Shown here: piece by piece, positions 21,823 through 38,933 of the stretch
How positions within the stretch are numbered: position 1 is the stretch's first letter
How the letters are laid out: the number at the start of each line of letters is the position of its first letter
DNA from: a virus
Length of the DNA stretch: 38,933 bases
Virus record (IMG/VR): IMGVR_UViG_3300021399_000041
Location: 1 to 38,933 of that record
Strand: one strand, 5' to 3'
Translations under genes and position numbers: made by a program
The notes under the pieces: model-generated
Told to the model about the DNA's origin: nothing
Databases searched by the model: none
Seen by the model: only the letters and a program-made list of their open reading frames with translations

Positions 21823-21845
21823 AATCAGCAAAAACTAATAGGTTT

Positions 21846-21876: not shown

Positions 21877-21893
21877 AGTTCATTTGTGCTAAC

Positions 21894-21917: not shown

Positions 21918-22019
21918 CAAAGCCTATGTTTAACTAAAAATCCTTGTGTATTACCGCCTATCTTCGCAGACTGGCAAAGCTAATTCAAGTGCTATGAAAA
22001 CACACTACAAAGGTAGTAA

Positions 22020-22361: not shown

Positions 22362-22415
22362 AAGTATATACTTTTATTTCGTTTGTAATTTCTTCGCGCC
22401 TGCATAAGTATATAC

Positions 22416-22766
22416 TTACGCCTGCGCACACTTAAACCAGTTGGCCGCGCCTATGCGGTTGCCGGGCTGAAAGCGGCCACGGCCTAACTTGTTATTCCTT
22501 ATCCGCGCCCACGTCAAAGACTGATGGCGTAGCTTATGTAGCCAGCCAGCATCTTTCTGAAGTCCTAACTGCTTTGCCTTACGCTGTACGCTGCACCGTG
22601 ACACGCCCAGCAGCGCGGCCAGTTCGTCGTTAGTCGTAGTGGCATACCAGCGGCGCAAATCTGCTAACATTTGGCCAGTCCATACACGCACCAGTGTAAT
22701 GCAGCCAGTGTGACGTTCATAAAGTCTGCCAGTGGCAGTGTCGTAATATCTCTGTTTCATAGCCAT
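22416..22766 (-). CDS. HTH DNA-binding protein (candidate transcription regulator)
   Basis: 116 aa; TNDELAALLGVSRCSVQRKAKQLGL is a classic helix-turn-helix (sigma region-4-like). Confidence 0.6.
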   Translation of the reverse strand: MAMKQRYYDTATGRLYERHTGCITLVRVWTGQMLADLRRWYATTTNDELAALLGVSRCSVQRKAKQLGLQKDAGWLHKLRHQSLTWARIRNNKLGRGRFQPGNRIGAANWFKCAQA

Positions 22767-22781
22767 GTCATTTGAATAGTT

Positions 22782-23009
22782 CTAACTGAATAGCGGTAAC
22801 TCCCCCCCCCTCGCACGTTCCAGCTTTGGGCGTGTGTAACTGCGCTGGCTGGCGCGTTTGGCTTTCAATCTCTCATAGATGGCGTTAGCTTGTTCGTACT
22901 GGCACGGTATGGTAATACTTTCGCGCTCACCAGTAAGTCTATTAACGCCCGTAACCGTCCAGCGGCCACGGTAGCCGTCTGTGCGCTGCTTCTTTGTCCT
23001 TTTTCTCAT
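22782..23009 (-). CDS. Hypothetical basic protein (75 aa) containing a G9 homopolymer near its 3' end
   Basis: ORF; C9 run on the plus strand at 22802-22810 encodes RGGE. Confidence 0.5.
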   Translation of the reverse strand: MRKRTKKQRTDGYRGRWTVTGVNRLTGERESITIPCQYEQANAIYERLKAKRASQRSYTRPKLERARGGELPLFS

Positions 23010-23021
23010 AATTCTTTCTAT

Positions 23022-23699
23022 CTAAAAGTCGAATGATAATTGAATATATTTACTTGATTCTTCGCGCTTCTTTTTCCGGCGCGCTGGCCTGCGTATAATT
23101 TCCGGCTGTTTTTGCGCATTATTTCCGGCTGGTTCTGCGTGTTTTGGTTCTACTGGTTCCGGCACTGGTAGCACGGGTTTTGGTAGTTCCGGCGTTACTG
23201 GCTCCGGCGTTACTGGCTCCGGGTCTTTATAGCCGATATGTCGGCACACGTCAGCGCGGAATATACGCATATAGTCGGGAATAGCATCTACTTGTATGTG
23301 GTTGCGTTCATGGTTCCAGTGTGCTTTCAAGAAAGCCCGGCTGTCTGCCAGCCAGTCTTCGCCGTCCGGCTGTGCCACTGGTTCCAGTGTGGCTTCCACT
23401 GGCGCGGCTGGCTCCGGCTTTGTCTGCTGGCTTCGTGTCTGGAATTCACGCCACGCGGTTGCTGCTGCTTCGCTGGTATCATAGACATGCTTCTTATGAT
23501 AGGCACATATATTGTAACAGCCTGCCACTATCGGCTTACCGTCTGACGCTGGCACTTGCATAGAAATAGCTATCCAGTCTTTCCATATCTCGCCGCTAAA
23601 GTTGGCCTTTTGCTTATCCAGTACCGTTCCAGCACATACATGGCCGTACCAGTTTACAAATACTTGTGTACCCGGTTCCATACGCTTAATGCTTTGCAA
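23022..23699 (-). CDS. Hypothetical protein with a Pro-rich linker and a C-terminal QLSFDF tail
   Basis: 225 aa. PEPVTPEPVTPELPKPVLPVPEPVEP arises from a 15-bp tandem repeat at 23189-23222. The basic KKKREESSKYIQLSFDF C-terminus resembles a sliding-clamp binding motif. Confidence 0.6.
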   Translation of the reverse strand: MQSIKRMEPGTQVFVNWYGHVCAGTVLDKQKANFSGEIWKDWIAISMQVPASDGKPIVAGCYNICAYHKKHVYDTSEAAATAWREFQTRSQQTKPEPAAPVEATLEPVAQPDGEDWLADSRAFLKAHWNHERNHIQVDAIPDYMRIFRADVCRHIGYKDPEPVTPEPVTPELPKPVLPVPEPVEPKHAEPAGNNAQKQPEIIRRPARRKKKREESSKYIQLSFDF

Positions 23700-23913
23700 A
23701 GTGTTCTATTTCCAAAGGTAGCACACGCGCTTCTTCGTAGCGGTTCTGACACGCTGCTGGTAGCGGCGCGCTGGCTACTTCACGCTGGCCGCTGGCCGCG
23801 CACTGGCTTATTATCGGGTCATTGCCCCACTGCATAAGATGCGCTTTTGCGCACGTCATGCAGTTGCCAGCTACGCGGCGCGGTCTGCTTACTTTGGTCG
23901 TTTTCTTCACCAT
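23686..23913 (-). CDS. Hypothetical Cys-containing small protein (75 aa)
   Basis: Start taken at the ATG at 23913 (MVKKTTKV), which overlaps the upstream stop (ATGGTGA). The longer ORF start at 23964 was rejected. Confidence 0.45.
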   Translation of the reverse strand: MVKKTTKVSRPRRVAGNCMTCAKAHLMQWGNDPIISQCAASGQREVASAPLPAACQNRYEEARVLPLEIEHFAKH

Positions 23914-24074
23914 ATCAGTGCAATATAGATGCGGTCTAACATGATACCCAGCAGTATAAAGCACGCTGCCAGTAGCCAGCCGGACAGCTTGATATGCTTA
24001 AACTGATTACTTACTACGGCCAGCACAAAAGTAAAAAGTGCTGCCAGTGCTAACAAAATGATACTTGTCTTCAT
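23907..24074 (-). CDS. Small two-TM membrane protein (55 aa), below the ORF-track cut-off
   Basis: Hand translation: MKTSIILLALAALFTFVLAVVSNQFKHIKLSGWLLAACFILLGIMLDRIYIALIW. ATGA overlap with the VRR-NUC stop and ATGGTGA overlap with the next gene. Confidence 0.5.
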   Translation of the reverse strand: MKTSIILLALAALFTFVLAVVSNQFKHIKLSGWLLAACFILLGIMLDRIYIALIW

Positions 24075-24496
24075 AATTTTGCTGTTTTAAGATATTGTTT
24101 AACAATAGAAATAAATTCTTCCAGTGTGTAGACGACGACGTACAAGTTTCCGTGTTCCTCTGTAGATGCCTGCCACTCCTTTTGTAAGTCTGTCTGTTTG
24201 TTCTTTCCATGCTTCAGTTCAATACAAAGCGCGCCGTATTTGTCATTTGGTATTAGCAGAATCAAGTCTGCCACACCAGCCACCACGCCAGCGGCTTTCA
24301 TGTTAGCGGCTTCTTTCCTGTTTCTGCTGCCGCCGTTTGGCACTGCGAAAAGCTGCCGCCAGTGTAGCGGGTACTGGTATCTAAACCACTCTACGCAGTC
24401 CATTTGCAGCCGTTCTTCCGGGTTGTCGTAGTGCTGTTTGGCTTTCAGCCCGGCTACTTCGGCTTTGTTTTGCTTCAGCATTTCTTCGTAGGTCAT
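24071..24496 (-). CDS. VRR-NUC domain nuclease
   Basis: 141 aa; MDCVEWFRYQYP...VPNGG...GVADLILL...CIELK pattern (PD-(D/E)xK type). Confidence 0.8.
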   Translation of the reverse strand: MTYEEMLKQNKAEVAGLKAKQHYDNPEERLQMDCVEWFRYQYPLHWRQLFAVPNGGSRNRKEAANMKAAGVVAGVADLILLIPNDKYGALCIELKHGKNKQTDLQKEWQASTEEHGNLYVVVYTLEEFISIVKQYLKTAKL

Positions 24497-24508
24497 AACT
24501 TCCAGTGG

Positions 24509-24901
24509 TTACATACGTGGCAGACTGCTAACTGGCACGTCACCGGGTAGCGGCGCAGCCTGCTGCTTTCTCTCTGTCAGTGTCAGCATAGAAGCGTCGA
24601 TGTACGCGGCTGTAACTTGCTGGCCTTGTTCGTTTGTATATGTGTCGTACTTCAGCATACCGCGCACATAGATAAAAGCACCTTTGCGTACATACTTCTG
24701 CACATATTCCGCGTTCTTATCCCAGCAGACTATGTTATGCCACTGCGTTACTTTAGGAATTTCCCTGCCGTCTTTGGTAGTGAAGCCGCCCGTACTGGTA
24801 GCCAGTGAAAAGCGCGCCACCAGCCCGCCGTTCTGTAAACCTTGAAATTCCGGCTCCCTGCCGACATTTCCCAATAGAATCACTAAGTTTTCGTAAGTCA
24901 T
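24509..24901 (-). CDS. ssb: Single-stranded DNA-binding protein
   Basis: 130 aa; OB-fold signature NLVILLGNVGREPE...ARFSLATS...TQWHNIVCW...YVRKGAFIYVRG. Confidence 0.85.
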   Translation of the reverse strand: MTYENLVILLGNVGREPEFQGLQNGGLVARFSLATSTGGFTTKDGREIPKVTQWHNIVCWDKNAEYVQKYVRKGAFIYVRGMLKYDTYTNEQGQQVTAAYIDASMLTLTERKQQAAPLPGDVPVSSLPRM

Positions 24902-25026
24902 ACGTTCTTAAATTTTGAAGTTATACAATTCTGCTTTTTATATTCTTCCATTTTCTTGATGGTTTCCCACGCTATGACAGCACGCCCCAGCAGCCGCCAA
25001 AACTCTTTATTACGTTTTCGTTTCAT
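24898..25026 (-). CDS. Possible small basic protein (42 aa), below the ORF-track cut-off
   Basis: Hand translation: MKRKRNKEFWRLLGRAVIAWETIKKMEEYKKQNCITSKFKNV. ATGA overlap with the ssb start; it begins 17 nt inside the upstream gene. Confidence 0.35.
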   Translation of the reverse strand: MKRKRNKEFWRLLGRAVIAWETIKKMEEYKKQNCITSKFKNV

Positions 25027-25387
25027 ACGCTGGCTGTTTATCCAGTTCTATTAGAAATTGCACATGCTGGTTAAGTTCTGCCAGCGTCGTTTCCATTGTG
25101 GCCGTCTTATCCCATGAATAGAAAGCAAAGTGTCGTAGCGTACCGCTGTTTTTACGCAGCTGGCATATTACCATTAAGCGCACGCCGTCCTGCCAGTCCG
25201 GGCTGAAGTCTGTGCGTACCGTCATTTCCAGCACGCCAGTACATGCCACTTGTAAGTTCTGAATTCTACGCAGCACGTCTTTAAGATGTGGCAGAAAGAA
25301 GACGGCCTGCTTCTTTTGCCATTCTGCTATAGCTTTCAGCGGCGCGGCTGCTTCTGCGCCCAGCTTCTTTCTTTCTTCGTCAGTCAT
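25010..25387 (-). CDS. Hypothetical protein (125 aa)
   Basis: Start taken at the ATG at 25387 (MTDEERKK). The upstream extension to 25465 runs into the repeat-rich intergenic region. Confidence 0.55.
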   Translation of the reverse strand: MTDEERKKLGAEAAAPLKAIAEWQKKQAVFFLPHLKDVLRRIQNLQVACTGVLEMTVRTDFSPDWQDGVRLMVICQLRKNSGTLRHFAFYSWDKTATMETTLAELNQHVQFLIELDKQPAYETKT

Positions 25388-25465
25388 ACATTTATATACT
25401 TTTGTAGGTTCGGTTATGCTGCCAACATGCGCGCCAGCGCGCGGCCATGTGCGCGAAATTCCCAT

Positions 25466-25704
25466 TTTTGAAAGTGGCGTTTTTGACTATTTCCAGCCGC
25501 GTAGACGGCATTAAAAACACACCCCGCCACCTTATCAGTCGCCAGCGCAAACGCGCCCAAACAGCCTTATTTTTCCCATTTCCAAAACGGCCAAACAGCC
25601 CCGCGTGTGAAGACGGTTTCGGGGAGAGGGTTACGCGCCCCGTCCGGCACTCAATTAACGATAGCCCCATTTTGCAATTTTTTACACTCATTTTCGATGC
25701 CCCA
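25466..25704. promoter_or_regulatory. Non-coding repeat-rich region next to the replication gene (candidate origin/iteron region)
   Basis: About 240 bp without a convincing ORF. Plus-strand direct repeats: ccaaacagcc at 25557 and 25591; cgat(a)gccccatt at 25659 and 25695; cccattt at 25461 and 25575. Confidence 0.4.
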
Positions 25705-26496
25705 TTAAAGTGAATTTTCTATGCACTGCACAAAGTGCTTTTCTTCCATTATCCAGTCGAAGTCAGCAGCAGCTTTGCGCCGCTTTGTCCGGCCATTCAG
25801 AAAGTCGCTTTGCATTGCGTTGCTAACAGCAGTACGCAAATGCGCTGACTGGTATTTATTAAGAATAACACGCAGCTTTTGCCGTCTGTCTTCTGTCAGC
25901 GCACGCACTGGCTTAATGTCGCTACGGTACAGATGCACGCACTTATTGAAGTATTGCATTATCAAAATAAATGCTGCTTCTTCGTTGTCAGCCTGCCACG
26001 GGTCATTATTATTTTTTTCTTTTTTTTCTTCCCCAGCTTCATGCGCGTGTGTGTCTGTCTGTGTGTGTAAAGAAGAAAAAGAAACGTTAGTTTCTACATT
26101 TTCATTATCATTCTCATTATCATTTACATTTTCATTATCATTCTCATTATCATTATCAGTTACGTTTGTATTCGTTTGTGTACGTTTGTTTACTTTTGTA
26201 TTCTTTCGTACACGTTCGTTTACGTTCGTGTTTTCTTGTGCTTCTTTCTTCTTACGCTCACGTTCTAAGGCTATGGCCTTATTCTTTTCACACCGCTTTT
26301 CGTACTTGGTGCTATCCATATCTATCTGTATGCGTAAGAAGTTCATAGCTACGCGCACCGCTTCGCTGTTTGTGGCTGGCATAGTTCCAGTAATAGCGTA
26401 CTGGAATAAGCAGTCAAGCAGCTGGCCTTTTTGTTCTATAGCCAGTTCTTTCAGTGCTTCATACTGCGCTGTGTATAAGATAAAGCTATCTTTCAT
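25705..26496 (-). CDS. Putative replication initiation / DnaD-like protein (phage conserved C-terminal domain) with a low-complexity linker
   Basis: 263 aa. C-terminal LTEDRRQKLRVILNKYQSAHLRTAVSNAMQSDFLNGR...ADFDWIMEEKHF resembles the DnaD/phage replisome-organiser C-terminal domain. Central NDNENDNENV repeats. Confidence 0.6.
   Translation of the reverse strand: MKDSFILYTAQYEALKELAIEQKGQLLDCLFQYAITGTMPATNSEAVRVAMNFLRIQIDMDSTKYEKRCEKNKAIALERERKKKEAQENTNVNERVRKNTKVNKRTQTNTNVTDNDNENDNENVNDNENDNENVETNVSFSSLHTQTDTHAHEAGEEKKEKNNNDPWQADNEEAAFILIMQYFNKCVHLYRSDIKPVRALTEDRRQKLRVILNKYQSAHLRTAVSNAMQSDFLNGRTKRRKAAADFDWIMEEKHFVQCIENSL
26097..26156. repeat. 30-bp tandem repeat, 2 copies, inside the replication gene linker
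   Basis: acattttcattatcattctcattatcatt(t/a) repeated back to back; encodes NDNENDNENV twice. Confidence 0.85.
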
Positions 26497-26515
26497 AATC
26501 TTTCCGGGTTTGAAG

Positions 26516-26755
26516 TTATACGCTACGACTGGCCAAATAGCCTATGACATTGTTATATGGATAACGCCAGTCTGCTTTACCTACCTTTAGGCGCGGCCAG
26601 TCTTTAGCGTTATGCCTAACGTATGATTCTGACAAGTTCAAGCGTTCTGCCAGCTGCTTAGTCGTCAGCAGTTCGTCACCGTAATACGGGTTATCTGCCA
26701 GCCTCAACTTATGCAGTTCTTCGGCTATCATGCGCGCGTCGTTTCGGTTCAGCAT
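26516..26755 (-). CDS. HTH DNA-binding protein (MerR/excisionase-like)
   Basis: 79 aa; LLTTKQLAERLNLSESYVRHNAKDWP...KADWRY pattern. Confidence 0.6.
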   Translation of the reverse strand: MLNRNDARMIAEELHKLRLADNPYYGDELLTTKQLAERLNLSESYVRHNAKDWPRLKVGKADWRYPYNNVIGYLASRSV

Positions 26756-26761
26756 AGCTTC

Positions 26762-26995
26762 TTAGTTTAGAATGATTTGCTTTGCACTCTTATAGATTCC
26801 CAGCCTACGCAGTATTCCCACCACTCCGGCGCGCGTCAGTTCGTGACGTTCTGCCACTTCGTCTAAGGCTCTGTTTGGCTTGTAGCCAGCAGCCTGCACT
26901 ACTGGCCAAATCTCTCTGAAGCTGGCCGCTACTGCTGCTTCACGGTCTGCTTTTCTACGCTCGTTAGCGGTTAATTTGATTTCTGCTGTACTCAT
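26762..26995 (-). CDS. Small HTH-like DNA-binding protein
   Basis: 77 aa; LDEVAERHELTRAGVVGILRRLGI. Confidence 0.5.
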   Translation of the reverse strand: MSTAEIKLTANERRKADREAAVAASFREIWPVVQAAGYKPNRALDEVAERHELTRAGVVGILRRLGIYKSAKQIILN

Positions 26996-26997
26996 AC

Positions 26998-27564
26998 TTA
27001 TTTGCTTTCTAATTGTTTCTGAAAATGTCTGTCTGCCAGTGTAGCTTCCATAAACATAACTTTCTGTAGCCTTATTAGGTCTTCATGTGTCAGTGGCTTA
27101 TCTTCGTCGTCTTCGTTCTTTACGCCACTATATAAGTTATGCTTCATTATGTAGGCTTCTGCCAGTAGCTTCAGCTGTTCGTCTCTCTCGCGCTCTAAGT
27201 TCGCTTTGTGCCACTCAAATAGTTCGTTAATCTCGATAAACTGCGCCTTTGTAATTTCCAGCCGTATTCTGTCACGGCCTATGTGCCAGCAGTTATAACT
27301 TCTTACTTTCATTACCTTACAACAGCACTGCGTGAATAGTGTACGCATAAGGTTTGTACGGCCTACCGTAAATGTGTAGCGTTCTTTCTTGTCATTGTCC
27401 TGCATTTCCAGTAACTCTTCCGGCGTAATGCCGTAGCGTTCACAAAGCCTTTTGATACCAGCCTTTGCAGCCTCAACTTCACCGCCATAGCCACGTTCTG
27501 CCAGTGCTTGTAATTTGCGAAGTTTTTCACGCACGCTTTCGTACTTTTCATTTGTCTTATCCAT
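26998..27564 (-). CDS. Hypothetical protein with a DUF2786-like N-terminal domain
   Basis: 188 aa; KLRKLQALAERGYGGEVEAAKAGIKRLCERYGI resembles the DUF2786 motif common in phage early regions. Confidence 0.55.
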   Translation of the reverse strand: MDKTNEKYESVREKLRKLQALAERGYGGEVEAAKAGIKRLCERYGITPEELLEMQDNDKKERYTFTVGRTNLMRTLFTQCCCKVMKVRSYNCWHIGRDRIRLEITKAQFIEINELFEWHKANLERERDEQLKLLAEAYIMKHNLYSGVKNEDDEDKPLTHEDLIRLQKVMFMEATLADRHFQKQLESK

Positions 27565-27574
27565 ATTATTGATA

Positions 27575-27766
27575 CTATGCTTTTTTGATTATTACTGCGT
27601 ATTCATTTCCCTTACATATAGTCTGGCCGATTTGCCCGGCTACCAGTAAAGCCATGCTGACGGCCAAAGCCTGCTGTCTGCTGACACACTCATAACGCTT
27701 ACGGTCTTCTGTCTCGCTGACTGGCAGCTGCACCACTTCACCGTTCATTAACTTGATACTTTCCAT
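27575..27766 (-). CDS. Hypothetical protein (63 aa)
   Basis: ORF tightly packed in the early operon. Confidence 0.45.
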   Translation of the reverse strand: MESIKLMNGEVVQLPVSETEDRKRYECVSRQQALAVSMALLVAGQIGQTICKGNEYAVIIKKA

Positions 27767-27772
27767 AACTAC

Positions 27773-28111
27773 CTATTTCTTTGGTTTAACACTCAATTCA
27801 GCGGCGGCTTCGCTAAAGATTCCATGCCATACGGTACTGATAGCGGCCAGTACGTCTTTCTTAGTCTTAAAATGGTAATAGTTGGCTTTAGTACCGTTCT
27901 TTGTAGTCCAGCTGTAGCGTTTTTCACCGTCAGCACTCCAAAGCGTCATTTTCCAGCCTTGAAAACTCCACGGACTGCCAGCTATACACTTTCCATTCTT
28001 ATCGTAAGCGCACCCGTCTTTAAGCATGATGCGGCGCGCACGCAGTTTCTTTGTTTCGTCGTTACTGATAGCTACTACCATGTAGCCGTCATTCTGTTGT
28101 ATCTTTGCCAT
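27773..28111 (-). CDS. Hypothetical protein (112 aa)
   Basis: ORF tightly packed in the early operon. Confidence 0.55.
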   Translation of the reverse strand: MAKIQQNDGYMVVAISNDETKKLRARRIMLKDGCAYDKNGKCIAGSPWSFQGWKMTLWSADGEKRYSWTTKNGTKANYYHFKTKKDVLAAISTVWHGIFSEAAAELSVKPKK

Positions 28112-28184
28112 ATCTCTTTCTATTGTTAATTTTCTGTTAAATGTCGTTTCTAAGCCGCTGTTATGTCTTCAGTGGATAACTATA

Positions 28185-28427
28185 CTACCGCCTATAAAAA
28201 ACCACGCTGAAGCCGCCGGAATGATGATTAAATGATTTCTTTGCAGCGTAAATCTTCAAAGCCTTTTGGCAGTAGTGTATAGCGTGCAAGTCACCTACCA
28301 GCAGACAAAGGCGCGTGAAGCCCACCAGCCTGCTTGTTTTGTCCTTTCGCAGTATCTGTATTATGTACTCCTTATTTATTTCAGCCCTAAGTGCTGGTAC
28401 ATTTATATTGGTGCTGTATTGTGCCAT
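28185..28427 (-). CDS. Hypothetical protein (80 aa)
   Basis: ORF co-oriented with its neighbours. Confidence 0.45.
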   Translation of the reverse strand: MAQYSTNINVPALRAEINKEYIIQILRKDKTSRLVGFTRLCLLVGDLHAIHYCQKALKIYAAKKSFNHHSGGFSVVFYRR

Positions 28428-28478
28428 ACTTCTTTCTATCTTTATGCAGCCCAGCCGGGAAAGCCGGGCTGCTGGTTA

Positions 28479-28652
28479 TTACAACTTGTCTTCGTCAAAA
28501 GTCAAAGCGTCTTCTATGGTTCCTATAACTTGCCCCAGCTTCATATACAAGTCGTCGTAGTGTCCGGCGTGGTGCTTTTCGATATAGTTACAAAAGCGCA
28601 CCAAACGGGCTTGTACTTTCTCTAAGTTCTTTAATTCAGCCTGCACCGTCAT
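28479..28652 (-). CDS. Possible small protein (57 aa), below the ORF-track cut-off
   Basis: Hand translation: MTVQAELKNLEKVQARLVRFCNYIEKHHAGHYDDLYMKLGQVIGTIEDALTFDEDKL. It fills a gap otherwise covered only by antisense plus-strand ORFs. Confidence 0.45.
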   Translation of the reverse strand: MTVQAELKNLEKVQARLVRFCNYIEKHHAGHYDDLYMKLGQVIGTIEDALTFDEDKL

Positions 28653-28664
28653 AGTCGTATAGTT

Positions 28665-28898
28665 TTAGCGGTCTATGATTTCTTGTAAGTTATCTATTAC
28701 ATCTTGCAAGTCACTGACGTAGCTGTCTAAGTCGTTAGCGTTTTCTTCGATAGCTTCGCCGCGCTCTGAATATTGTAGAGATTCCGGCATATTGTCGTAG
28801 CTTTCTTGTTCTTCACACTGGATGCTTTCCAGTTCTTCTTTTTGTTCTTCCAGTTTGGCTATTACGTCTTCCAGCCATTTTCTTCTTGCTTTGTTCAT
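28665..28898 (-). CDS. Hypothetical acidic coiled-coil protein (77 aa)
   Basis: ORF; highly acidic (EEQKEELESIQCEEQESYDN...). Confidence 0.5.
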   Translation of the reverse strand: MNKARRKWLEDVIAKLEEQKEELESIQCEEQESYDNMPESLQYSERGEAIEENANDLDSYVSDLQDVIDNLQEIIDR

Positions 28899-28944
28899 AA
28901 GGCTTTGTTTTTAGTGGCCGGGAATTACACCCGGCCATGATTAC

Positions 28945-29280
28945 TTATAATACTATTTCTTTAATTAGCACTTGATAGATAAGTACCTTTGTACCTCTTT
29001 CGTCTTCAGCCATTTTTTCGTGGCGTAGTTCGATAGTGGCCTGCTGATGAATGTCGAGATACTGGAAATGATACTGGTATTTCTCTACGCCAGTAATCGG
29101 GTCTACAAACTTTTCGCCCTCACCTACATGCTTATTGTCGTCGCCTACATAAAACGGGCAGCGCATAGCTTCGGCCAGTGTAGCGTAGTTAAATACGTGC
29201 TTATAAGTAGCGTCTAAACTTGATTCGTGCCAGTCTGTAACTAACACTTGATAAAACTTGATACCGTTCTTTGTTTCCAT
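28945..29280 (-). CDS. Hypothetical protein, first gene of the early operon (111 aa)
   Basis: ORF divergent from the repressor gene. Confidence 0.55.
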   Translation of the reverse strand: METKNGIKFYQVLVTDWHESSLDATYKHVFNYATLAEAMRCPFYVGDDNKHVGEGEKFVDPITGVEKYQYHFQYLDIHQQATIELRHEKMAEDERGTKVLIYQVLIKEIVL

Positions 29281-29456
29281 AATTTCTTGAATTAGCTTTG
29301 TAATTTGAATTATTTTTCTTAATTTTGCAGCGTGTTTTGAAACACGTTTCGGAATTCGTTGGCAAAGTTACGACAAATGTCTTAAACTACCAAGACAAAT
29401 GGCGTAAATCTTTAGTTCAGATGTGTTATTTATATTTATTCTAAATTAGAAAAATT
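29281..29456. promoter_or_regulatory. Lysis-lysogeny switch region with candidate promoters and operators
   Basis: Minus-strand TAACTTTG box (plus coordinates 29363-29370). Plus-strand TAGCTTTG (29293-29300) and TAATTTTG (29320-29327). Inverted repeat cgtgttt-tg-aaacacg at 29331-29346. Direct repeats gacaaatg at 29372 and 29394. Confidence 0.5.
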
Positions 29457-29798
29457 ATGGAAAGTATTATAATTCAACGAATTAGGCAGCTTTTAGAAGC
29501 GCGCGGCGAAAGTATAAACGCTTTTGCAGCCGCTATTAACATGAAGCAAACGACGGTAAATAACTACTTTTTGGGCAAACGTTCACCGTCATTTGAGTTA
29601 ATAGACAGCATACTGGCCAGCATCCCGGAATTATCAGCAGAATGGCTTTTGCGCGGTAATGGTACTATGTTTTTAGCAGATACGGCAAAGCCTACCGATG
29701 AAGTGGCCGCGCTTCGTGGCGAATTAAACGGCGTATATAACGCCCTGCGAATTTTAGGTATTAGTTTGCAGCCTCAACAAAAGAAAGCGGCTGTGTAA
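29457..29798 (+). CDS. XRE-family HTH repressor (CI-like)
   Basis: 113 aa; IRQLLEARGESINAFAAAINMKQTTVNNYFLGKRSPS...AEWLLRGNG; divergent from the early operon. Confidence 0.8.
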   Translation: MESIIIQRIRQLLEARGESINAFAAAINMKQTTVNNYFLGKRSPSFELIDSILASIPELSAEWLLRGNGTMFLADTAKPTDEVAALRGELNGVYNALRILGISLQPQQKKAAV

Positions 29799-29820
29799 TT
29801 ATTAAAATGTTTCCAAAGAT

Positions 29821-32738: not shown

Positions 32739-33293
32739 TTATTTATGTCGTATGAACAAGAAGCGTTTAATAAGCCACCAGCCCACGGCTATTACTAAGC
32801 CTGCCAGCACCAGTGTAGCCACGCCGTTAAGTAGCCAGTTCTGCCAGCCGCCACCGCTTCCGGCTTCCGCTGGTTGTACGTCTGTGCTGTCAGCTTTCTG
32901 CCAGTGTGTATTTTGGCTGTCGTCTATCAAATCTACTTTATTATGATAGTTCAAATGTGCTAAATCTTCCGTTTTTGCCACTTTCCTGCCGTTCTGACGG
33001 CGTTTTGTTTCTTTCGTGAATGATTTCACACCCTCTGCACTAATTTGGCCGTCAGCGTTAATTTTTACGGTTCCGCTGTCAGTCAGCTGGAATGTCAGCG
33101 TTTCCGTAGTGCTGTCAGTCTGTACTTCAAACGTCTGCGTAGTCGTCTGCTGGCTGGTTGTGCTGTCAGTCTGCTGGCCAGCCTCTACGTGACTGGTCGA
33201 AGTCTGGTCGCTTTCAGTCCTTACTATGTGCTTCTTACTGGCACATGCAACCAGCAGCAGCGCGGCCAGTATAATGTAGATGGCTTTCTTCAT
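32739..33293 (-). CDS. Candidate unimolecular spanin (lipoprotein signal plus C-terminal TM anchor)
   Basis: MKKAIYIILAALLLVAC lipobox, T/Q/S-rich middle and C-terminal TM WLLNGVATLVLAGLVIAVGWWLI. ATGA overlap with the amidase stop. Confidence 0.55.
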   Translation of the reverse strand: MKKAIYIILAALLLVACASKKHIVRTESDQTSTSHVEAGQQTDSTTSQQTTTQTFEVQTDSTTETLTFQLTDSGTVKINADGQISAEGVKSFTKETKRRQNGRKVAKTEDLAHLNYHNKVDLIDDSQNTHWQKADSTDVQPAEAGSGGGWQNWLLNGVATLVLAGLVIAVGWWLIKRFLFIRHK

Positions 33294-33976
33294 ACGCTTT
33301 CGATGTATTTAATTATACCCTCAACATGCAGACGCGCCAGCGCGTGCTTTCCGTCTTCAGACAGCAGCCAGTCGGTATCTGCCTTATTATCCATAAACAT
33401 GTTTTCTGTCAGCACCGCCGGGCATTCCGTATGCTTCAGCACGTACAAAGCGGCTTCCATGTCGCTGTCGCCGTCTGTTGTGTCTCTGCGTATAGGTTTC
33501 TGCACCTTTTCCGTAGCCGGGAAAGTCTTTGCGTAGTCTTTTAGATTCGCTTCAGCGGCCTTGTAAAGACATTCTGCCAGCGTGTCGGCCTTTGTCTTAC
33601 CTACAGACGTGTAGGCACTCCAGCCGCGTGCGTTAAGCCACTGGCCACCGTTTCCGGCGGCGTTCACATGAATAGACACATACATGCAGTTAGCAGCCTT
33701 AAACAGCTTACAAGCGGCGTTTACAAACTTCACCCTATATTCCAGTTCGCGCTGCTGCTGGCCTTTGGCCGTAGTAGCCTGCATGTCCTTACACGGTGTC
33801 ATGTCTTCATAGTCTACCATTACATGATAGTCGTATGCTTCCAGCTTCGCTTTGATGTCAGCCACCAGCGCGCGGCTGTAGGCGTATTCTTTTAGCCTGC
33901 TGTCCGGGCTGCATTTGCCGGGCGTAGTGGCTAAGTGTGCCGTGCCTAATATGATAACAGCTTTATTCTTCTGCAT
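33290..33976 (-). CDS. N-acetylmuramoyl-L-alanine amidase (endolysin)
   Basis: 228 aa; ILGTAH...VSIHVNAAGNGG...VLTENMFMDN motifs of Amidase_3-type lysins. Confidence 0.85.
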   Translation of the reverse strand: MQKNKAVIILGTAHLATTPGKCSPDSRLKEYAYSRALVADIKAKLEAYDYHVMVDYEDMTPCKDMQATTAKGQQQRELEYRVKFVNAACKLFKAANCMYVSIHVNAAGNGGQWLNARGWSAYTSVGKTKADTLAECLYKAAEANLKDYAKTFPATEKVQKPIRRDTTDGDSDMEAALYVLKHTECPAVLTENMFMDNKADTDWLLSEDGKHALARLHVEGIIKYIESV

Positions 33977-34466
33977 TTTCTTCTTTGTGTTTCTTGTCGT
34001 AGCGGTCTACCAGTTCGCTAATGTGTCCGGGTAGTAGCCGCTTCAGTTCCAAACGTATTACTAAGTAGATTATCCAAAGCCCTTTGTTCTTAGGGTACGC
34101 TATGACTAAGTTCTTGAAAGCGTTCTGCACGTACACATACATGATAACGTATGTTAGTGTCTTCGCGGCATACACGGCGGCTGTACCGTCACCGCAAAGC
34201 CACATAACGCCATGAATCAGCCATAAGATAGATACATACAAAGCCAGTTCTACCAGCGCGCCACGCAGTTTCTTCATACTGAAGCGTTTGCAGCGGAATA
34301 TAACCACGCCGTCGGCTCTCATACCAGCCCAAATATTAAAAGACGCTACCAGTATCAAAGCCAGTACGAATTTATGCGTAGGCATAATGACTGCGAAGAC
34401 TGGCGCACTGAATCCCGTAAACACCAAACGCAGCGTGTCGCTGCTGAATATTGTTATACCGTTCAT
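33963..34466 (-). CDS. Holin (multi-TM membrane protein)
   Basis: 167 aa with about 4 hydrophobic helices and a charged C-terminus (DRYDKKHKEENAEE); overlaps the amidase start by 14 nt. Confidence 0.65.
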   Translation of the reverse strand: MNGITIFSSDTLRLVFTGFSAPVFAVIMPTHKFVLALILVASFNIWAGMRADGVVIFRCKRFSMKKLRGALVELALYVSILWLIHGVMWLCGDGTAAVYAAKTLTYVIMYVYVQNAFKNLVIAYPKNKGLWIIYLVIRLELKRLLPGHISELVDRYDKKHKEENAEE

Positions 34467-34471
34467 AACTG

Positions 34472-34930
34472 CTAAGTGTTATAAATAAGCTGGCCTTGCT
34501 CGTTCAGTTCAAAGTTTTCTGCCATACCGTCCACCGTAAGCCCCAGCGTTTCCGGGTCGATTTCAAAGTTTGGCCATTCAAACGGCGTTACGCCCAGCGT
34601 GAAGTCTACCACGTCGTCGGCTTCCTCTCCGGCTTCAGCGTCAGCGTTCCAGTTTACCACTTCTACGCTGTCTTCCTGCGCCCACCGCTTTGGCAGCGCG
34701 CCCACCTTTGCCGTCAGTTCTATGCCGTAGCAGCCGCAGACGACTGACGGCGGTACGATGCCGATAAGTTCGTTATCTTCGCCGTCAGCCGCTACTACTG
34801 GCACGTCATAGCCGCCGCCCGTGCTGGTAGTCAGACGCAGACGTACTTCGGACATTTGCGTAACGTCCGCTGTCGTGTCAGCTATCTGCACTTTGATGTA
34901 TTGGGCATTGCCTCTGACGATTTTCTTCAT
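34472..34930 (-). CDS. Hypothetical structural protein (152 aa) sharing a C-terminal module with the 211..1596 fibre
   Basis: C-terminus WPNFEIDPETLGLTVDGMAENFELNEQGQLIYNT compared with FPRFDCDPETMAVYIESAPTDAGRFELAEDGCLYVNF. Confidence 0.6.
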   Translation of the reverse strand: MKKIVRGNAQYIKVQIADTTADVTQMSEVRLRLTTSTGGGYDVPVVAADGEDNELIGIVPPSVVCGCYGIELTAKVGALPKRWAQEDSVEVVNWNADAEAGEEADDVVDFTLGVTPFEWPNFEIDPETLGLTVDGMAENFELNEQGQLIYNT

Positions 34931-34934
34931 TTTC

Positions 34935-35537
34935 TTAGATGGTAAATGTTAGCTTTTCGGGATAGCCTGCCGTGAAGTCATACGCCAGTATTTCTTCCAC
35001 GGTCAAAGTCATGTCGTCAATAGCGGCCAAATGTGCGCTGGTTTGGTTGTAGCACTTCACCGCGTACACTTCCAGTTCTTGCAACATGGCCAGCAGCTTT
35101 GCACATTCTATTTCCGGCGACAAATCAAACTCCCTAATATCCAAATGGTAGTTACCTTTACGGGCTGACTTCCACGCGCTGACGCTTTCGCGTATCTGTG
35201 CGCGCTTCGCCACGGGTAGCCAGTAGGGAATAGTAGTGCCTATGGCCTCAACTTCAAAGCTGAATTCATTAATGGCTGCGCTGTTGTCGTAGTCGTTAAT
35301 GGCCTGCTTCATAAACTGGCGTGCTATGGCCGTCGCTTCTGTCTCGTCTGTTTCCAGTTCGATGTAGTTGGCCACATGTACGGTACGCTGGCGTGGTTCC
35401 TCGCCCTCGCCTGCTTCGTCGGTTACTTCACGCTCTGAATGATTAAAATAGACGCGCTTCACGGTCTTACCGTCGCGCGTGGCTACCGTCTGCACTTCCG
35501 GCTGGCGGCTGTTGGCTTCGTCTTGTTTGTAAATCAT
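34935..35537 (-). CDS. Hypothetical protein (200 aa) downstream of the DGR
   Basis: ORF; no motif recognised. Confidence 0.6.
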   Translation of the reverse strand: MIYKQDEANSRQPEVQTVATRDGKTVKRVYFNHSEREVTDEAGEGEEPRQRTVHVANYIELETDETEATAIARQFMKQAINDYDNSAAINEFSFEVEAIGTTIPYWLPVAKRAQIRESVSAWKSARKGNYHLDIREFDLSPEIECAKLLAMLQELEVYAVKCYNQTSAHLAAIDDMTLTVEEILAYDFTAGYPEKLTFTI

Positions 35538-35742
35538 ATTCTATAACTTTAAGTGGTTCTTTCTCTTTGTCGTTCAGCGCGGCAAAGTAATAGTACCCGT
35601 CACGCTTTCTTATTATCTTCGTGTAATGTGGCAGTTCTGCTTCAGTGCCGCGTATTGTCTTCAGCAACTTGTAGCCCTCTGCTAACAGCAGACGCGCTTC
35701 TATTGCGCCGTCTTCCACATAGTACACTTGCGCTGCCAGCAT
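35467..35742 (-). CDS. Possible small ORF (91 aa) directly after the RT; coding status uncertain
   Basis: The ATG at 35742 (MLAAQVYYVEDG...) lies 35 nt after the RT stop. The ORF overlaps the next gene by 71 nt. The longer version to 35886 would overlap the RT. Confidence 0.3.
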   Translation of the reverse strand: MLAAQVYYVEDGAIEARLLLAEGYKLLKTIRGTEAELPHYTKIIRKRDGYYYFAALNDKEKEPLKVIEYDLQTRRSQQPPAGSADGSHARR

Positions 35743-35776
35743 CTCTTTTCCTGCGTGCAACTGACTGGCCGTTATC

Positions 35777-37132
35777 TCAAAATGGCAAATCAGCAGCGGC
35801 TTGTAAAGCAGCTGGCCGCAGTAGGCGCGCTTTCCTAAATACTGGTGCTTTAGTATCTTTTGCCCCCTCGATGTCGATAAGTCCATATAGCGGATATTGT
35901 GCTTTATGCTCCGGGCTTCTGAAGTCCGGCGCGGTTGTTAGTATCTTTTTCAGTTTGTTGTGCCATGCCTTTTGTCTGTGCCTGCGCTTCACCTCTGCAC
36001 GGCCAGCAGCCAGCATGTCGAAAAATTCCGGGTATTTCCGTTTCCAGTAGTTTATAAGGTTCGCCACGTCCAAATCTCGCAGACTGCCGCTAACGCCAGC
36101 CCAGCTTTGCATAGCCTTTTCCGGGTTCCAGCCCTCACGTATGCGCGTCTTCATCATTGCTTCCACTCTCCGGCGGCTCACACGTCGAAGCCACGCGCGC
36201 CTGCTGTTCACCATTGCGCCCAAACACTCAAAGCGTTCTTTTTCCACATTCAGCACGCGCCAGTTAGCTTTCAGCGTTTGCTTCATATCATCCTCAACAC
36301 TGGCACGTAGCACGCGCATAGCCGTATGCAGATAGTTTACGTCTTTGTGTATCATATATTTGTCGTCACAAAAGCGGTAGTAGCGGCGTATCTTATAGGC
36401 TAACAAAAGCTGCCAGTCTGTCGCTGCGTGGTAAACATGACCTAACACGTTGCTACTTGGCAGTCCTAAAGCCATGCCTACGCTACCCATGCGGCTAAGA
36501 TTCACTTCAGACAGCCAAAGCAGCCATTTGTCTTTGATATGGTCTGCCAGTATCTTCAGCAGCACTTCGTGGTTTGTTGTAGGGTAGAATTTGGCCGTGT
36601 CGCCAGTACCTACGAATAAGTCCGGCCTATGCCTCACTTTGCGGATAATCTCACGCCGCATGTCATGCTGGCCTTTGCCCTTGATGCTGCCGTAGCTGTT
36701 GGCTGGTATGATATGCTTCTTTTCCATGAAGACGTACTGAAGACAGTCGAAATACAAAATGTCTACTATCAATTCTTCCGGCCTGCTGGCATAGATTACA
36801 CGGTGCTTATTGTTTTCTTTCTTGTCGAAGACAATAAACGCGCGCGGCTTCCATACCATATAGCGAAGCTGGTAGTAAAGCCGCGTAACGTTTTCGTCTA
36901 AGTGTCCTAACCAGTCATGCCATGCGGCGCGTATCTCGTTAGTCCATTCCTTTTGTTTTTCGGGTCTGTTCAGATATTCCACTATTAGCAGAATTCTTTC
37001 GCGCGTCAGCATCCGCTTTCGCACATTGCCCACTTTCTTTGTCATTTTAATGCGTTTGCTAATTGGCGACACCATTTCTTCGTTCGGACTTATTCCCGTG
37101 CCGTCCTGCCAGTCATGCCAGCCTACTGCCAC
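35777..37132 (-). CDS. DGR-type reverse transcriptase with atypical motifs
   Basis: RT motifs in order: NKHRVIYASRPEELIVD (1/2), NSYGSIKGKGQHD (2a), GTGDTAKFYPTTNH (A/3), GLPSSNVLGHVYH (4), YYRFCDDKYMI (C/5), FECLGAMV (6) and QSWAGVSGS (DGR thumb motif ASWxGH-like). Immediately 3' of the TR. Start is uncertain (GTG 37132, ATG 37075 or ATG 37045). Confidence 0.85.
   Translation of the reverse strand: MAVGWHDWQDGTGISPNEEMVSPISKRIKMTKKVGNVRKRMLTRERILLIVEYLNRPEKQKEWTNEIRAAWHDWLGHLDENVTRLYYQLRYMVWKPRAFIVFDKKENNKHRVIYASRPEELIVDILYFDCLQYVFMEKKHIIPANSYGSIKGKGQHDMRREIIRKVRHRPDLFVGTGDTAKFYPTTNHEVLLKILADHIKDKWLLWLSEVNLSRMGSVGMALGLPSSNVLGHVYHAATDWQLLLAYKIRRYYRFCDDKYMIHKDVNYLHTAMRVLRASVEDDMKQTLKANWRVLNVEKERFECLGAMVNSRRAWLRRVSRRRVEAMMKTRIREGWNPEKAMQSWAGVSGSLRDLDVANLINYWKRKYPEFFDMLAAGRAEVKRRHRQKAWHNKLKKILTTAPDFRSPEHKAQYPLYGLIDIEGAKDTKAPVFRKARLLRPAALQAAADLPF
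35834..35872 (-). promoter_or_regulatory. Late-gene bipartite repeat, copy F, inside the 3' end of the RT gene (CATCGAGGGGGCAAAA-N16-GTATTTAGG)
   Basis: Plus strand has tttgccccctcgat at 35859-35872, encoding IDIEGAK of the RT. The distal half is a weaker match (cctaaatac at 35834-35842). Confidence 0.45.
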
Positions 37133-37251
37133 ACGTTTGCCTACTTGCTGTCTTTAAGTGTCTAATTTGATTGTGCAACCTTTGGCACCGTTCTGAATTC
37201 CATGCTTTCTTTTGATACATATTTCCGGCTGTGTGACAAAACAGCTGGCCA

Positions 37252-37356
37252 TTAGTTCACCGCCCGCGTTGGTTCCAGTTCGCATTCCCAGCCGAATTGT
37301 TCGCATTCCGAGCAAACACGCCACAATTCGCGCCGTTGTTCGAGTTCCCACCAGCG
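37252..37356 (-). repeat. DGR template repeat (TR)
   Basis: Non-coding copy of VR, offset exactly 260 bp. In the VR frame it reads AGGNSNNGANCGVFARNANNSAGNANWNQRGR and is rich in AAC/AAT codons. All differences from VR are at TR adenines (T on the plus strand). Confidence 0.9.
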
Positions 37357-37477
37357 GGCTGGAATTCAGCCCGTCGCGCATATTAAGCCATGCGCCGCTA
37401 ATTCTCTTTGACAGACGCGCGGCGCGCCCGGCCATTCAAAACCGGGTCGCCGTTCATCTGTTCAACTTGGCTTCGCC

Positions 37478-37490
37478 GTCGCTTTGCGAC
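37478..37490 (-). other. Small hairpin 12 nt downstream of the target stop codon (candidate DGR homing-associated hairpin)
   Basis: Minus-sense GTCGC-AAA-GCGAC, flanked by the 13-bp direct repeats at 37453-37465 and 37501-37513. Confidence 0.35.
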
Positions 37491-37501
37491 ATTCAGCTGC
37501 T

Positions 37502-38929
37502 TCATCTGTTCAAAGCACACCGCCCGCGGAGGTCCCAGTTCGCATACCCAGCCGAAGCGGACGCAGACCGAGCAAACACGCCACAAAACGCGCCGTTGAG
37601 CGAGGTCCCACCAGCGTAGAAGACCGTACCGCCACCAGTAATTAAATACTGGCCGTCAGTAACGCCCGTGCTGCTGCTGCCGTCTTCGTCTTCAGCCATG
37701 CCAAAGAAGTTAATATTCTTTGGATATTTCCAGTTATTAGCATCTACGACATGGAAATTAACGGTAATCTCTGCGTTATCGTCGGTAACGGTTACGGCGG
37801 CGTTAGCCTTTACGTCGTCCATTGTGAATTTAGCCACGCCGTTGGCTGTAAACTTCCAGCCAGCACCCCAAAGCCACTGCTTGCCGTCGATGGCATTTTC
37901 GCAATACATAAAGCGATGGCCACCGCCAACAGCACCACATGCAGCTACCAGCGTGTCAGTGGTTCCGGCTACCCAGTTACGTGCTGCTGATTCACCGCCG
38001 CCGTTCATCTGACCGCCGCGTGCTGTAGCCACGTCGAATGTACCGTAGTAGGCGACTTCCAGCCAGCCGAATACGATAATCTCCCACGCCGTCCAGTTCA
38101 GCAGATTGGCATTTGTTGCCACGGTCATGCTGTGAATGCTGTTTGCGCTGAAGTTGCCAGTAGGCTGGCTGTTTCCGGCGGCGCAATCCAGTGTAGTGCC
38201 GTCTTCGTTGAAAGTCAGGTCGTAGCGTCCCATGCACTTTGTACCGTTCTTAAACCAGCGATAGAAGCCGTTAGGACATACGCTGTCTAAGTTGAAGTAC
38301 ACCGTCATGGTACGGTCTAACAAGTTGATAAACGGTGCTACGTTGATGTTCTGAAGTTCCACCAGCTGCAAATAGTCGTTTTTGTCGTCAGTGGCGTAGT
38401 GGCTACCCGTGCCGTCTGCGCGCTCCGTCCAGTTCACGTTACTGGCTACGCCAGCCTCGTTACGCAGATAGGCAAAGTTCGTGAAGTCTTTCTTGATTTC
38501 ACACGGTTTGCCGCTGGTCTCTACCCACGTCTTAAACTTGTTGTAAAGCGTGGTGTTTCCTACTACGGTAATGGTCTTTACCGCGTCGTCGATGTTCCAG
38601 CGTATGCCAAAGCTGGCCAGCTGAAGCGTCTGTAGTTCGTTAGTCACCTTTGCGGCGATTTCTCCGATTTGCCCGGTAATGACTTGTGCGTTAGCCTCTG
38701 CGTGTGCTGCTGCTGCTTTAGCTGCTGCTGTAGCTGCTTGGCATTCTGCAATAGCCTGCGAAGCCGGAATGGTTACACCAGTCTGCATGTCGATACCCAG
38801 CTGCCAGTCTTCTGATGGTGTCTGTTCGCCGTTTACGATAGTTGGCAGCGGCGCGGTATTTGGGTTATCGGCCTGCGCCGTCTTCTGCCCCGTCTTTGAT
38901 ACCCACCAGTTACCAAATTCGTCCTGCAC
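37502..38929 (-). CDS. DGR target protein: fibre/receptor-binding protein with a C-terminal C-type-lectin-like variable tip (continues to the ATG at 184 across the circular junction)
   Basis: 475 aa in the window, about 502 aa once circularised. N-terminal fibre-like segment (GNWWVSKTG..., Ala-rich coiled coil AATAAAKAAAAHAEANAQ). C-terminal GGxxxNGAxCG...W..R..C pattern typical of DGR CLec-fold variable proteins. Confidence 0.9.
   Translation of the reverse strand: MQDEFGNWWVSKTGQKTAQADNPNTAPLPTIVNGEQTPSEDWQLGIDMQTGVTIPASQAIAECQAATAAAKAAAAHAEANAQVITGQIGEIAAKVTNELQTLQLASFGIRWNIDDAVKTITVVGNTTLYNKFKTWVETSGKPCEIKKDFTNFAYLRNEAGVASNVNWTERADGTGSHYATDDKNDYLQLVELQNINVAPFINLLDRTMTVYFNLDSVCPNGFYRWFKNGTKCMGRYDLTFNEDGTTLDCAAGNSQPTGNFSANSIHSMTVATNANLLNWTAWEIIVFGWLEVAYYGTFDVATARGGQMNGGGESAARNWVAGTTDTLVAACGAVGGGHRFMYCENAIDGKQWLWGAGWKFTANGVAKFTMDDVKANAAVTVTDDNAEITVNFHVVDANNWKYPKNINFFGMAEDEDGSSSTGVTDGQYLITGGGTVFYAGGTSLNGAFCGVFARSASASAGYANWDLRGRCALNR
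37512..37616 (-). repeat. DGR variable repeat (VR), last 35 codons of the target gene
   Basis: Encodes AGGTSLNGAFCGVFARSASASAGYANWDLRGRCAL. There are 15 mismatches to TR in the 99-bp core (37518-37616 vs 37258-37356) plus 4 in the 6-bp 3' extension, all opposite TR adenines. Confidence 0.9.
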
Positions 38930-38933
38930 GGCT
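38827..38933. repeat. Terminal direct repeat identical to 1-107
   Basis: Exact 107-bp identity with the start of the window. Confidence 0.95.

Follow-up and report, generated by a model that had tools for sequence, protein, structure and literature searches.

The viral genome IMGVR_UViG_3300021399_000041 of IMG/VR (38,933 nucleotides, the whole of which is hereafter referred to as the window) very probably carries a functional diversity-generating retroelement (DGR) of a temperate tailed phage, which would diversify the C-type-lectin-like tip of a fibre protein. Approximately 31,000 DGRs have been catalogued (Roux et al.), and a phage fibre tip is their textbook target. The element itself is an ordinary DGR. 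Its value lies in a setting devoid of the Avd protein, in a reverse transcriptase (RT) belonging to a clade marked by the residues SN in motif 4, in a small protein linked to the RT, and in a covarying RNA.

Template and variable repeats

A direct repeat of 105 bp, with an offset of 260, is found on the minus strand, to which the elements and genes of the cassette located below by window coordinates also belong. The template repeat (TR) side spans positions 37252-37356, the variable repeat (VR) side spans positions 37512-37616, and homology ends abruptly at either edge. An earlier note on this DNA had claimed that the two copies differ only at TR adenines. Realignment bore this out, as all 19 mismatches fall on a TR adenine and none elsewhere; 19 of the 26 TR adenines are mismatched. 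The chance of such a distribution is 1.8e-15 over the 105 bp and 7.9e-13 over a 99-nt core (TR 37258-37356, VR 37518-37616), which contains 22 adenines and 15 mismatches, 15/15 of them at TR adenines.

Close relatives of the element are available in IMG/VR. Eight were retrieved (L003-L010, RT 85-99% identical), seven of which carry a TR/VR pair and, together with the window, make up the eight loci compared here. The last four mismatches of the 105-bp pair (TR ...TGAACTAA versus VR ...TGTGCTTT) are the same in 8/8 loci, whereas upstream of this fixed flank every one of the 22 TR adenines varies among the loci. For this reason, the 105-bp extent given in the earlier note holds for the repeat pair, but the mutagenised unit, as judged from the aligned loci, would be the 99-nt core. 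The four terminal mismatches out of 19 would represent a boundary of the IMH/IMH* (initiation of mutagenic homing) type, and not mutagenesis.

The TR is non-coding, and its 22 adenines are arranged as 11 AA dinucleotides. The VR ends in the GC-rich sequence CGCGGGCGGTG (37518-37528), an IMH-like element, and is followed by a VR-specific fixed flank, TGCTTTGA (37510-37517), featuring four differences from the TR flank that are the same in all eight close loci. The corresponding fixed flank at the 3' side of TR, AACUAAU (37251-37257), is never transferred to VR; in a putative template:primer duplex (see below), it would provide the template strand. In the VR frame, a stop codon (TGA) is present in the TR flank, and it is likewise never copied into VR. 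In all eight loci, the conserved GC-rich end of VR precedes a flank that has diverged between TR and VR, and the sequences make this region a candidate for the boundary function.

VR lies within the last 35 codons of the target open reading frame (ORF), the stop codon of which is at 37502-37504, in agreement with the placement of VR at the 3' end of a fibre-like ORF in the earlier note. A gap of 161 nt separates the VR core from TR, and only one VR is present in the whole genome. Read in the VR frame, the TR holds 10 AAY codons and one CAA codon, corresponding to 15^10 x 5 = 2.9e12 protein variants, the order of 10^12 that had been calculated earlier for this non-coding repeat. A GC-rich hairpin, GTCGC-AAA-GCGAC (37478-37490), is located 28 nt 3' of VR. 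Comparable hairpins of 4-9 bp, unrelated in sequence, occur 18-45 nt after VR in 11/12 loci, and by analogy the hairpin is a candidate target-recognition hairpin or cruciform.

Evidence for activity

Over 4727 gapless nt, relative L007 and the window share 99.09% identity, and their TRs are identical. Fifteen of the 43 differences between the two sequences are inside the 99-nt VR, all opposite TR adenines, which corresponds to a 24-fold enrichment (P = 6e-15). In the core of the eight close loci, 112 of the 113 TR/VR mismatches occur at A, which is changed to G in 41 cases, to T in 38 and to C in 33. TR adenines remain A in all loci compared. Ten non-adenine TR polymorphisms distinguish the phages, and each of them is mirrored in the cognate VR. 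Because non-adenine changes in TR are always matched in this way, copying from TR to VR appears to be continuing, and the comparison of the loci indicates a DGR that is active or recently active.

The same pattern extends to 11 more distant loci (RT 43-61% identical), which keep the VR-TR-RT layout and feature A-specific mismatches. All mismatches are at A in nine of these loci, with one exception in L012 and two in L019. L011 and L012 have a common TR but different VRs. The single exception among the close loci (1/113) is a G to T mismatch at VR position 16 of L008, and that of L012 is a C to T mismatch (1/14). Such rare non-A mismatches are compatible with ordinary point mutation or with occasional misincorporation opposite bases other than A.

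The reverse transcriptase

The RT gene (35777-37045) encodes 422 residues from a conserved ATG, including the motif-4 sequence LGLPSSN and the catalytic FCDD. The ORF is open from a GTG at 37132, and the earlier note had placed the RT start about 120-200 bp 3' of TR. The start common to all relatives (MTKKVG...), however, is the ATG at 37045, 212 nt past the 99-nt TR core and 205 nt past the fixed AACTAAT flank.

The protein matches phrog_1423 ('reverse transcriptase') in PHROGs with E = 1.6e-38, and the window copy has no match in Pfam even at E <= 1; among the 34 aligned relatives, 18 match RVT_1. RT homologues form 67 clusters among 5.8 billion proteins, most of which have no Pfam match and are labelled 'hypothetical'. 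A search of the PDB with the RT family profile, a check of the kind suggested by the earlier note, gave as best match 8ub7 (E = 6e-20, nearly full length). This entry is the Bordetella phage bRT, as deduced from residue numbering, since D138, I181, G182 and Q187 agree with the cryo-electron microscopy (cryo-EM) preprint on phage BPP-1. The next matches were a CRISPR-associated RT (8bgj, 2e-13), group II intron RTs (5e-6), Drt2 (2e-5) and retron-type RTs (6e-5). Judged from these profiles, DGR RTs are probably the nearest kin of the enzyme, ahead of those of the group II, retron, Abi and DRT types. The best matches in GenBank phages include the RTs of the known DGR phages ANMV-1 and Hankyphage p00, the other top ones being BalMu-1, the crAss-like cr50_1 and VP585, with 22-30% identity.

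The signature of the clade in motif 4 is an invariant LGxxxSN, not IGxxxSQ. N228, invariant in 34 family sequences, aligns with Q187 of bRT, which contacts the incoming deoxynucleoside triphosphate (BPP-1 cryo-EM preprint). L003-L019 (43-99% identity) are the only members of the clade in IMG/VR, below which identity drops straight to ~27%, and a scan of 185,579 species-representative genomes detected it in one metagenome-assembled genome (MAG) of Prevotella sp. only. Clade loci with enough flanking sequence are organised as VR, a gap of 73 to 255 nt, TR, ~165-230 nt and the RT start, and all feature A-specific mismatches.

The target protein

The main part of the target gene (37502-38933) includes the C-terminal 477 codons and the stop codon. 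The gene crosses the circular junction of the genome, and its 5' end maps to 108-184, with the ATG at 184, for a total of 502 residues. The terminal repeat at 38827-38933 is a 107-bp exact copy of bases 1-107, an overlap left by the assembly of a genome that is circular or terminally redundant. Because of this exact repeat at both ends, the contig can be regarded as a circularly closed assembly, with 38826 bp of unique sequence once the overlap is removed. Because the gene crosses the junction, the DGR target would be split by gene callers working on the linear record, as the earlier note had anticipated.

The protein is fibre-like, with a long N-terminal helix and a C-terminal, C-type-lectin-like variable domain. 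It matches nothing in Pfam, NCBIfam or PHROGs, and its homologues fall into 56 clusters, none of which has a Pfam domain. The AlphaFold2 model, obtained from a 37-sequence alignment (pLDDT 83.6, pTM 0.78), shows the long helix followed by a globular C-terminal part. When the model was compared to the PDB with Foldseek, the only significant match was the Thermus aquaticus protein TaqVP (5vf4, E = 2e-5, probability 1.00); Mtd (1yu2), PvdO and TvpA (2y3c) were among the best non-significant matches. Since TaqVP ranks best and both Mtd and TvpA are among the next matches, the model supports a C-type-lectin-type fold of DGR variable proteins at the C-terminus, which had been suspected earlier.

A structured RNA around the template repeat

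A duplex predicted in the RNA brackets TR. Its upstream strand, CUGAAUUCCA (37360-37369), pairs with 37193-37202 over 10 bp. A duplex of 6-15 bp occurs at the same position in 12/12 loci; in L008 it is replaced by CCAAAUUCCG/CGGAAUUUGG, a fully compensated version. The score of the bracketing duplex was reached by <=6/300 shuffles in 7/11 tested loci.

The spacer between TR and the RT start (37046-37250) would also be structured and is conserved in blocks. Its elements are a hairpin with a UGUCA loop (37225-37250), the hairpin P1 with the loop CAAAGGUU (37173-37188), the long-range helix P2, in which 37158-37162 and 37068-37072 pair around the invariant sequences AGUAGG and UCCGAA, and the sequence AUUAGCA (37057-37063), complementary to the TR flank. 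Both P1 and P2 covary. Just before the RT start, AUUAG (37059-37063) pairs with CUAAU of the TR flank, and compensatory changes are observed in L013, L017, L019, L015 and L083.

The structure of the spacer was derived from single-sequence folds and by eye, and the pairs were then counted. For 13 tested pairs, 86% of cells were paired, as compared to 27-52% in slid controls, and 21 cells were changed on both sides; the covariation score was reached by 0/500 shuffles. RNAalifold, run on a MAFFT alignment of the spacer, returned three pairs only, because of indels in the alignment. A search of Rfam at E <= 1 with the region 34500-38933 revealed no family. In the BPP-1 RNA, the template:primer duplex between TR and Sp has the priming adenosine at its end, and the avd:Sp duplex brackets TR (cryo-EM preprint). 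Reasoning from this parallel, a candidate priming site is the conserved adenosine in AUUAGCA (37057); this is the weakest part of the model.

A small protein linked to the RT

The Avd family (a four-helix bundle, Pfam 23S rRNA-IVP) was not matched by any of the 37 window ORFs scanned, and neither an Avd nor a second RT was found by a Pfam scan of 28 ORFs in the 20600-29800 region. There is no room for an avd gene between VR and TR, because the gap is only 161 nt. The ORF at 37154-37435 (93 aa) was considered as a possible Avd and rejected, as it contains TR in another frame and has no family matches.

The ORF directly 3' of the RT (35467-35886) encodes a small basic protein of 139 aa (pI 9.3), which starts with MDLST..., overlaps the 3' end of the RT gene by 110 nt and is a candidate accessory factor. 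This small ORF is present directly 3' of the RT in 20/20 clade loci that reach that far, including L019 (RT 43% identical), and keeps its place beside the RT even in loci in which the following genes differ. In L016, the small ORF (5097-5348) is cut to 83 aa and tblastn similarity runs on to ~5495, suggesting a frameshift due to sequencing error or decay.

The small protein received no assignment from Pfam, NCBIfam or PHROGs; its distant members weakly match phrog_19665, a family of unknown function. The small-protein profile detected 60 clusters (50% identity) among 1.84 billion representatives. A tblastn search of GenBank phages with the small protein gave no match, and the same search with the distant member P0173 reached ANMV-1 and vir525. 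When profiles were compared with hhalign, the small protein was related to a distant family of ~100 aa with 99.0% probability (E = 7.9e-18).

Members of this distant family abut a DGR RT in the resolved contexts (5/6), and every locus that is contained in full includes an A-specific TR/VR pair of its own. For instance, 17/17 TR/VR mismatches are at A in L087, and 13/13 in L089/L090, in which the family member and the RT are associated with a Mu-like baseplate module and an Mtd-like target. In ANMV-1, the protein AJP62065.1, encoded directly after the RT, belongs to the ~100-aa family, and 17/17 mismatches are at A; the figure is 13/14 in the Methanosarcinales virus vir525, in which a family member is also found beside the RT. 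In L085, the family gene is located upstream of the RT, which it overlaps by 4 nt and which has the canonical IGNYLSQ, in a contig that is too short to include the repeats.

A matching module also occurs fused to the RT. In most of 63 more distant RT loci (L020-L082, RT 22-32% identical), it is the RT ORF itself that matches the small-protein profile, over ~100 residues at its C-terminus. This fused form measures 460-527 aa from stop to stop, and its last ~100 residues begin with MKKFSEMG...; in L068 and L072, the segment forms a short ORF of its own. In a Hankyphage-type RT (434 aa), residues 328-422 match the small-protein profile with E = 1.3e-10. The AlphaFold2 model of the small protein (pLDDT 84.7) consists of three strands and a helix, followed by two more strands and a helix at the C-terminus, and in BFVD it matches domains located inside two viral RT proteins (E = 2-3e-4). 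We do not claim an OB-fold for this protein: SSB, RPA and PriB appeared only among insignificant PDB matches, and the likeness is a topological impression.

Altogether, we infer that the small ORF is the free-standing form of an RT C-terminal extension, and the partner of the RT in DGRs that lack Avd, which it would functionally replace. That it represents a widespread and undescribed DGR accessory module, performing the role of Avd by positioning the TR RNA and the cis-primer on the RT, alongside an SN-type RT, is a more tentative proposal, to which we assign somewhat less than an even chance.

Neighbouring genes, genome and host

The small ORF is followed in most clade loci by a gene encoding an acidic, DUF4376-like protein (34935-35537 in the window, 200 aa, pI 4.73). 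DUF4376 is weakly matched by 2/9 members of the acidic family (best E = 5e-4). The gene is absent in L013/14, L017/18 and L019, and the protein was rejected as an essential part of the DGR since it is missing from these five clade loci. It is possibly a CH1-type gene or a fibre-related gene. CH1 is an acidic protein of 160-169 aa (pI ~4.7) that flanks Avd-less Bacteroides DGRs of Architecture E (Wu et al. 2017, PMC5758913). In the Hankyphage genome L094 (PV107408.1, Bacteroides phage jmh72_hp), a gene at 3984-4469 is labelled 'Avd' both in the record note and in PMC12135933. Its product, of 161 aa and pI 4.69, matches Pfam DUF4376 and no other Pfam family at E <= 0.01. The gene seems to owe this label to its position, and the protein fits the published description of CH1, to which it is likened here by description only.

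The genome encodes the small and large terminase subunits, a portal protein, a head protease, the major head protein (phrog_10), a tail tube protein, a tape measure protein, large tail proteins, an integrase, an amidase and a spanin-like lipoprotein. This gene set agrees with the temperate tailed phage inferred earlier, and the DGR cassette is located, as had also been noted, between the tail (fibre) genes and the lysis genes. Among the 28 ORFs scanned at 20600-29800, Pfam matches include a single-stranded DNA-binding protein, an HNH endonuclease, a VRR-NUC protein, the small terminase, the tail tube, head-tail connector and completion proteins and helix-turn-helix repressor-type proteins, an ordinary set for a temperate siphovirus. 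A tail protein of 1591 aa (1944-6719, minus strand) has several PHROG matches; its residues 753-850 resemble glycerophosphoryl diester phosphodiesterase (phrog_4896, E = 1.5e-13), and it may be a tail-associated depolymerase or esterase.

A megablast search of GenBank phages with the region 33000-38933 gave no match. The host is probably Prevotella or another member of the Bacteroidales, from rumen or gut; the assignment is tentative because the scan of species representatives yielded only one Prevotella sp. MAG.

Comparison with known systems

The analogy with the mtd/TR/brt system of BPP-1 (mtd - avd - TR - brt) that was drawn in the earlier note applies to the TR/VR/RT anatomy, to adenine specificity and to the target fold. 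In both phages, VR is at the 3' end of a fibre-tip gene, within a C-type-lectin-type fold, a non-coding TR and the RT follow on the same strand, transfer from TR to VR is adenine-specific, and a GC-rich 3' boundary is combined with a diverged, IMH/IMH*-like TR flank. In both, the TR is part of a structured RNA, with a duplex formed from the two sides of TR and a downstream segment complementary to the TR 3' end. The analogy fails in other respects. The window has no avd, its VR core and TR being 161 nt apart. Its RT, of 422 aa as compared to the 328 aa of bRT, gives a weak pairwise match (E = 9e-6), belongs to the LGxxxSN type and has N at the position of bRT Q187. It is followed by a different small protein, basic and predicted to be beta-rich, and the spacer RNA has no detectable sequence likeness to that of BPP-1. 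Lacking both avd and the [IL]GxxxSQ motif, the window element, as far as its sequence tells, would not be a DGR of the BPP-1 (Avd-dependent) type.

The DGRs of the Hankyphage p00 type (Lineage 3, which lacks avd, Architectures A and E; Wu et al. 2017, PMC5758913) are similar to the window element in being carried by temperate phages of Bacteroidales, in the order target - TR - RT, and in having no Avd-family protein. An acidic DUF4376-like protein is encoded downstream in both cases (161 aa and pI 4.69 in Hankyphage, 200 aa and pI 4.73 in the window), and the C-terminal ~100 aa of the Hankyphage-type RT are the module that is free-standing in the window. In contrast, identity between the RTs is only ~26-28%, over 36-38% of the window RT query, and the window module is a separate overlapping ORF, not a fusion.

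ANMV-1 (adtA - TR - RT; Paul et al. 2015, PMC4372165) is arranged like the window element, as target(VR) - TR - RT - small protein, and its 98-aa 'hypothetical protein' (AJP62065.1, 4607-4903 of KP703175.1, locus L092) belongs to the same family as the product of 35467-35886. A different small ORF of ANMV-1, between target and RT, was labelled Avd-like on no other grounds than its pI and size (Paul et al. 2015, PMC4372165). Unlike the window phage, ANMV-1 has an archaeal host and an RT with the canonical LGNYTSQ. On the basis of these sequence relationships, we propose a grouping of Avd-less DGRs of the Hankyphage/ANMV-1 type, to which the window element would belong, defined by an RT C-terminal module that is either fused or encoded by an abutting ORF.

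Discussion

A mechanism can be proposed for the window element. A transcript extending from ~37370 to 37046 on the minus strand would hold the 99-nt TR within a folded RNA. The adjacent RT would copy TR into cDNA, placing random bases opposite the 22 adenines, and the cDNA would substitute for VR at the fibre-tip gene's 3' end, with the GC-rich CGCGGGCGGTG and the diverged flank setting the 3' limit and the TR-to-VR direction. The outcome would be the re-randomisation of 11 codons of the C-type-lectin-like ligand-binding surface, for ~3e12 proteins. The DGR would run without Avd, with the small basic protein (35467-35886) as the partner of the RT; this protein may stand in for Avd by holding the RNA or the template:primer duplex. 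Synthesis of cDNA may be cis-primed as in BPP-1, from adenosine 37057, with AUUAG pairing with CUAAU of the flank, and the duplex 37360-37369/37193-37202 may act like the 'cPRT Stop' of BPP-1.

Several observations weigh against parts of this interpretation. Activity is deduced from differences between assembled relatives, not from heterogeneity within a sample, and the RT features SN in place of the canonical SQ, the window copy having no match to Pfam RVT_1. These observations would suit a fossil DGR, in which the TR/VR pair records past mutagenesis and the element is dead in the window phage. We consider this very unlikely, because every part of the element, from the RT and the small ORF to TR and the RNA structure, is intact and conserved, N228 never varies within the clade, which is expected of a selected residue, and non-adenine TR changes were carried into VR in every lineage. 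Moreover, L007 has the same TR, and the only sites at which its VR departs from that of the window are 15 adenine-templated ones. Ordinary duplication or gene conversion, with an adenine bias that is coincidental or due to selection on the protein, would account for the bare existence of a repeat and for nothing more. This alternative is effectively refuted by the distribution of mismatches (P = 8e-13 for the window alone, 112/113 at A across eight loci), by substitutions to all three other bases, by a TR that is non-coding and associated with a stop codon in the VR frame, and by the presence of an adjacent RT in all 20 or more loci. Other weak points concern the nucleic acid structures. The hairpin after VR is short, and its distance from VR is variable. 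The proposed template:primer duplex measures 4-8 bp and is not significant relative to shuffles in most single loci; the support for it consists of a few compensatory changes at homologous positions.

The role assigned to the small protein is open to a different objection. The DGR could be genuine and the small protein an ordinary phage gene, such as a tail or assembly factor, that travels with the fibre module, no accessory being needed, as in Architecture A. Twenty-nine percent of DGRs have no accessory gene of any kind (Wu et al. 2017, PMC5758913). None of the relatives of the small protein is annotated, and a Foldseek search of the PDB revealed no significant neighbour (best E = 0.09). Furthermore, one distant member, P0164 (311-625 of the 1.4-kb contig ERZ27294293 k141_43524, locus L088), is surrounded by small ORFs, with no RT visible within so short a contig. 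This explanation is nonetheless unlikely in our judgement. The family adjoins the RT in unrelated viruses with different tail modules (a Prevotella-type siphovirus, a Mu-like prophage, ANMV-1 and a Methanosarcinales virus), and the small ORF stays beside the RT when the following genes differ. In one case (L085) it lies upstream of the RT, with a 4-nt overlap, and in Hankyphage-type RTs the module is covalently fused to the enzyme. A free-standing partner of the RT is the reading that we retain.

Pfam RVT_1 overlooks about half of the members of the SN clade, and DGR finders that start from the RT may undercount elements of this kind. The TR RNA offers precise predictions that can be tested by mutation, namely the bracketing duplex, the AUUAG/CUAAU pairing and the candidate priming adenosine, and that bear on the generality of the cis-priming described in BPP-1. 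How Avd-less DGRs work is an open question, for which the locus offers a genetically testable candidate, a module of ~100 aa attached to the RT or abutting it, which ranges from Prevotella phages to archaeal viruses and to the ubiquitous gut Hankyphage. About 20% of DGR RTs have a C-terminal extension that is unexplained (Wu et al. 2017, PMC5758913); if the proposed role of the small protein is true, this module would explain it.

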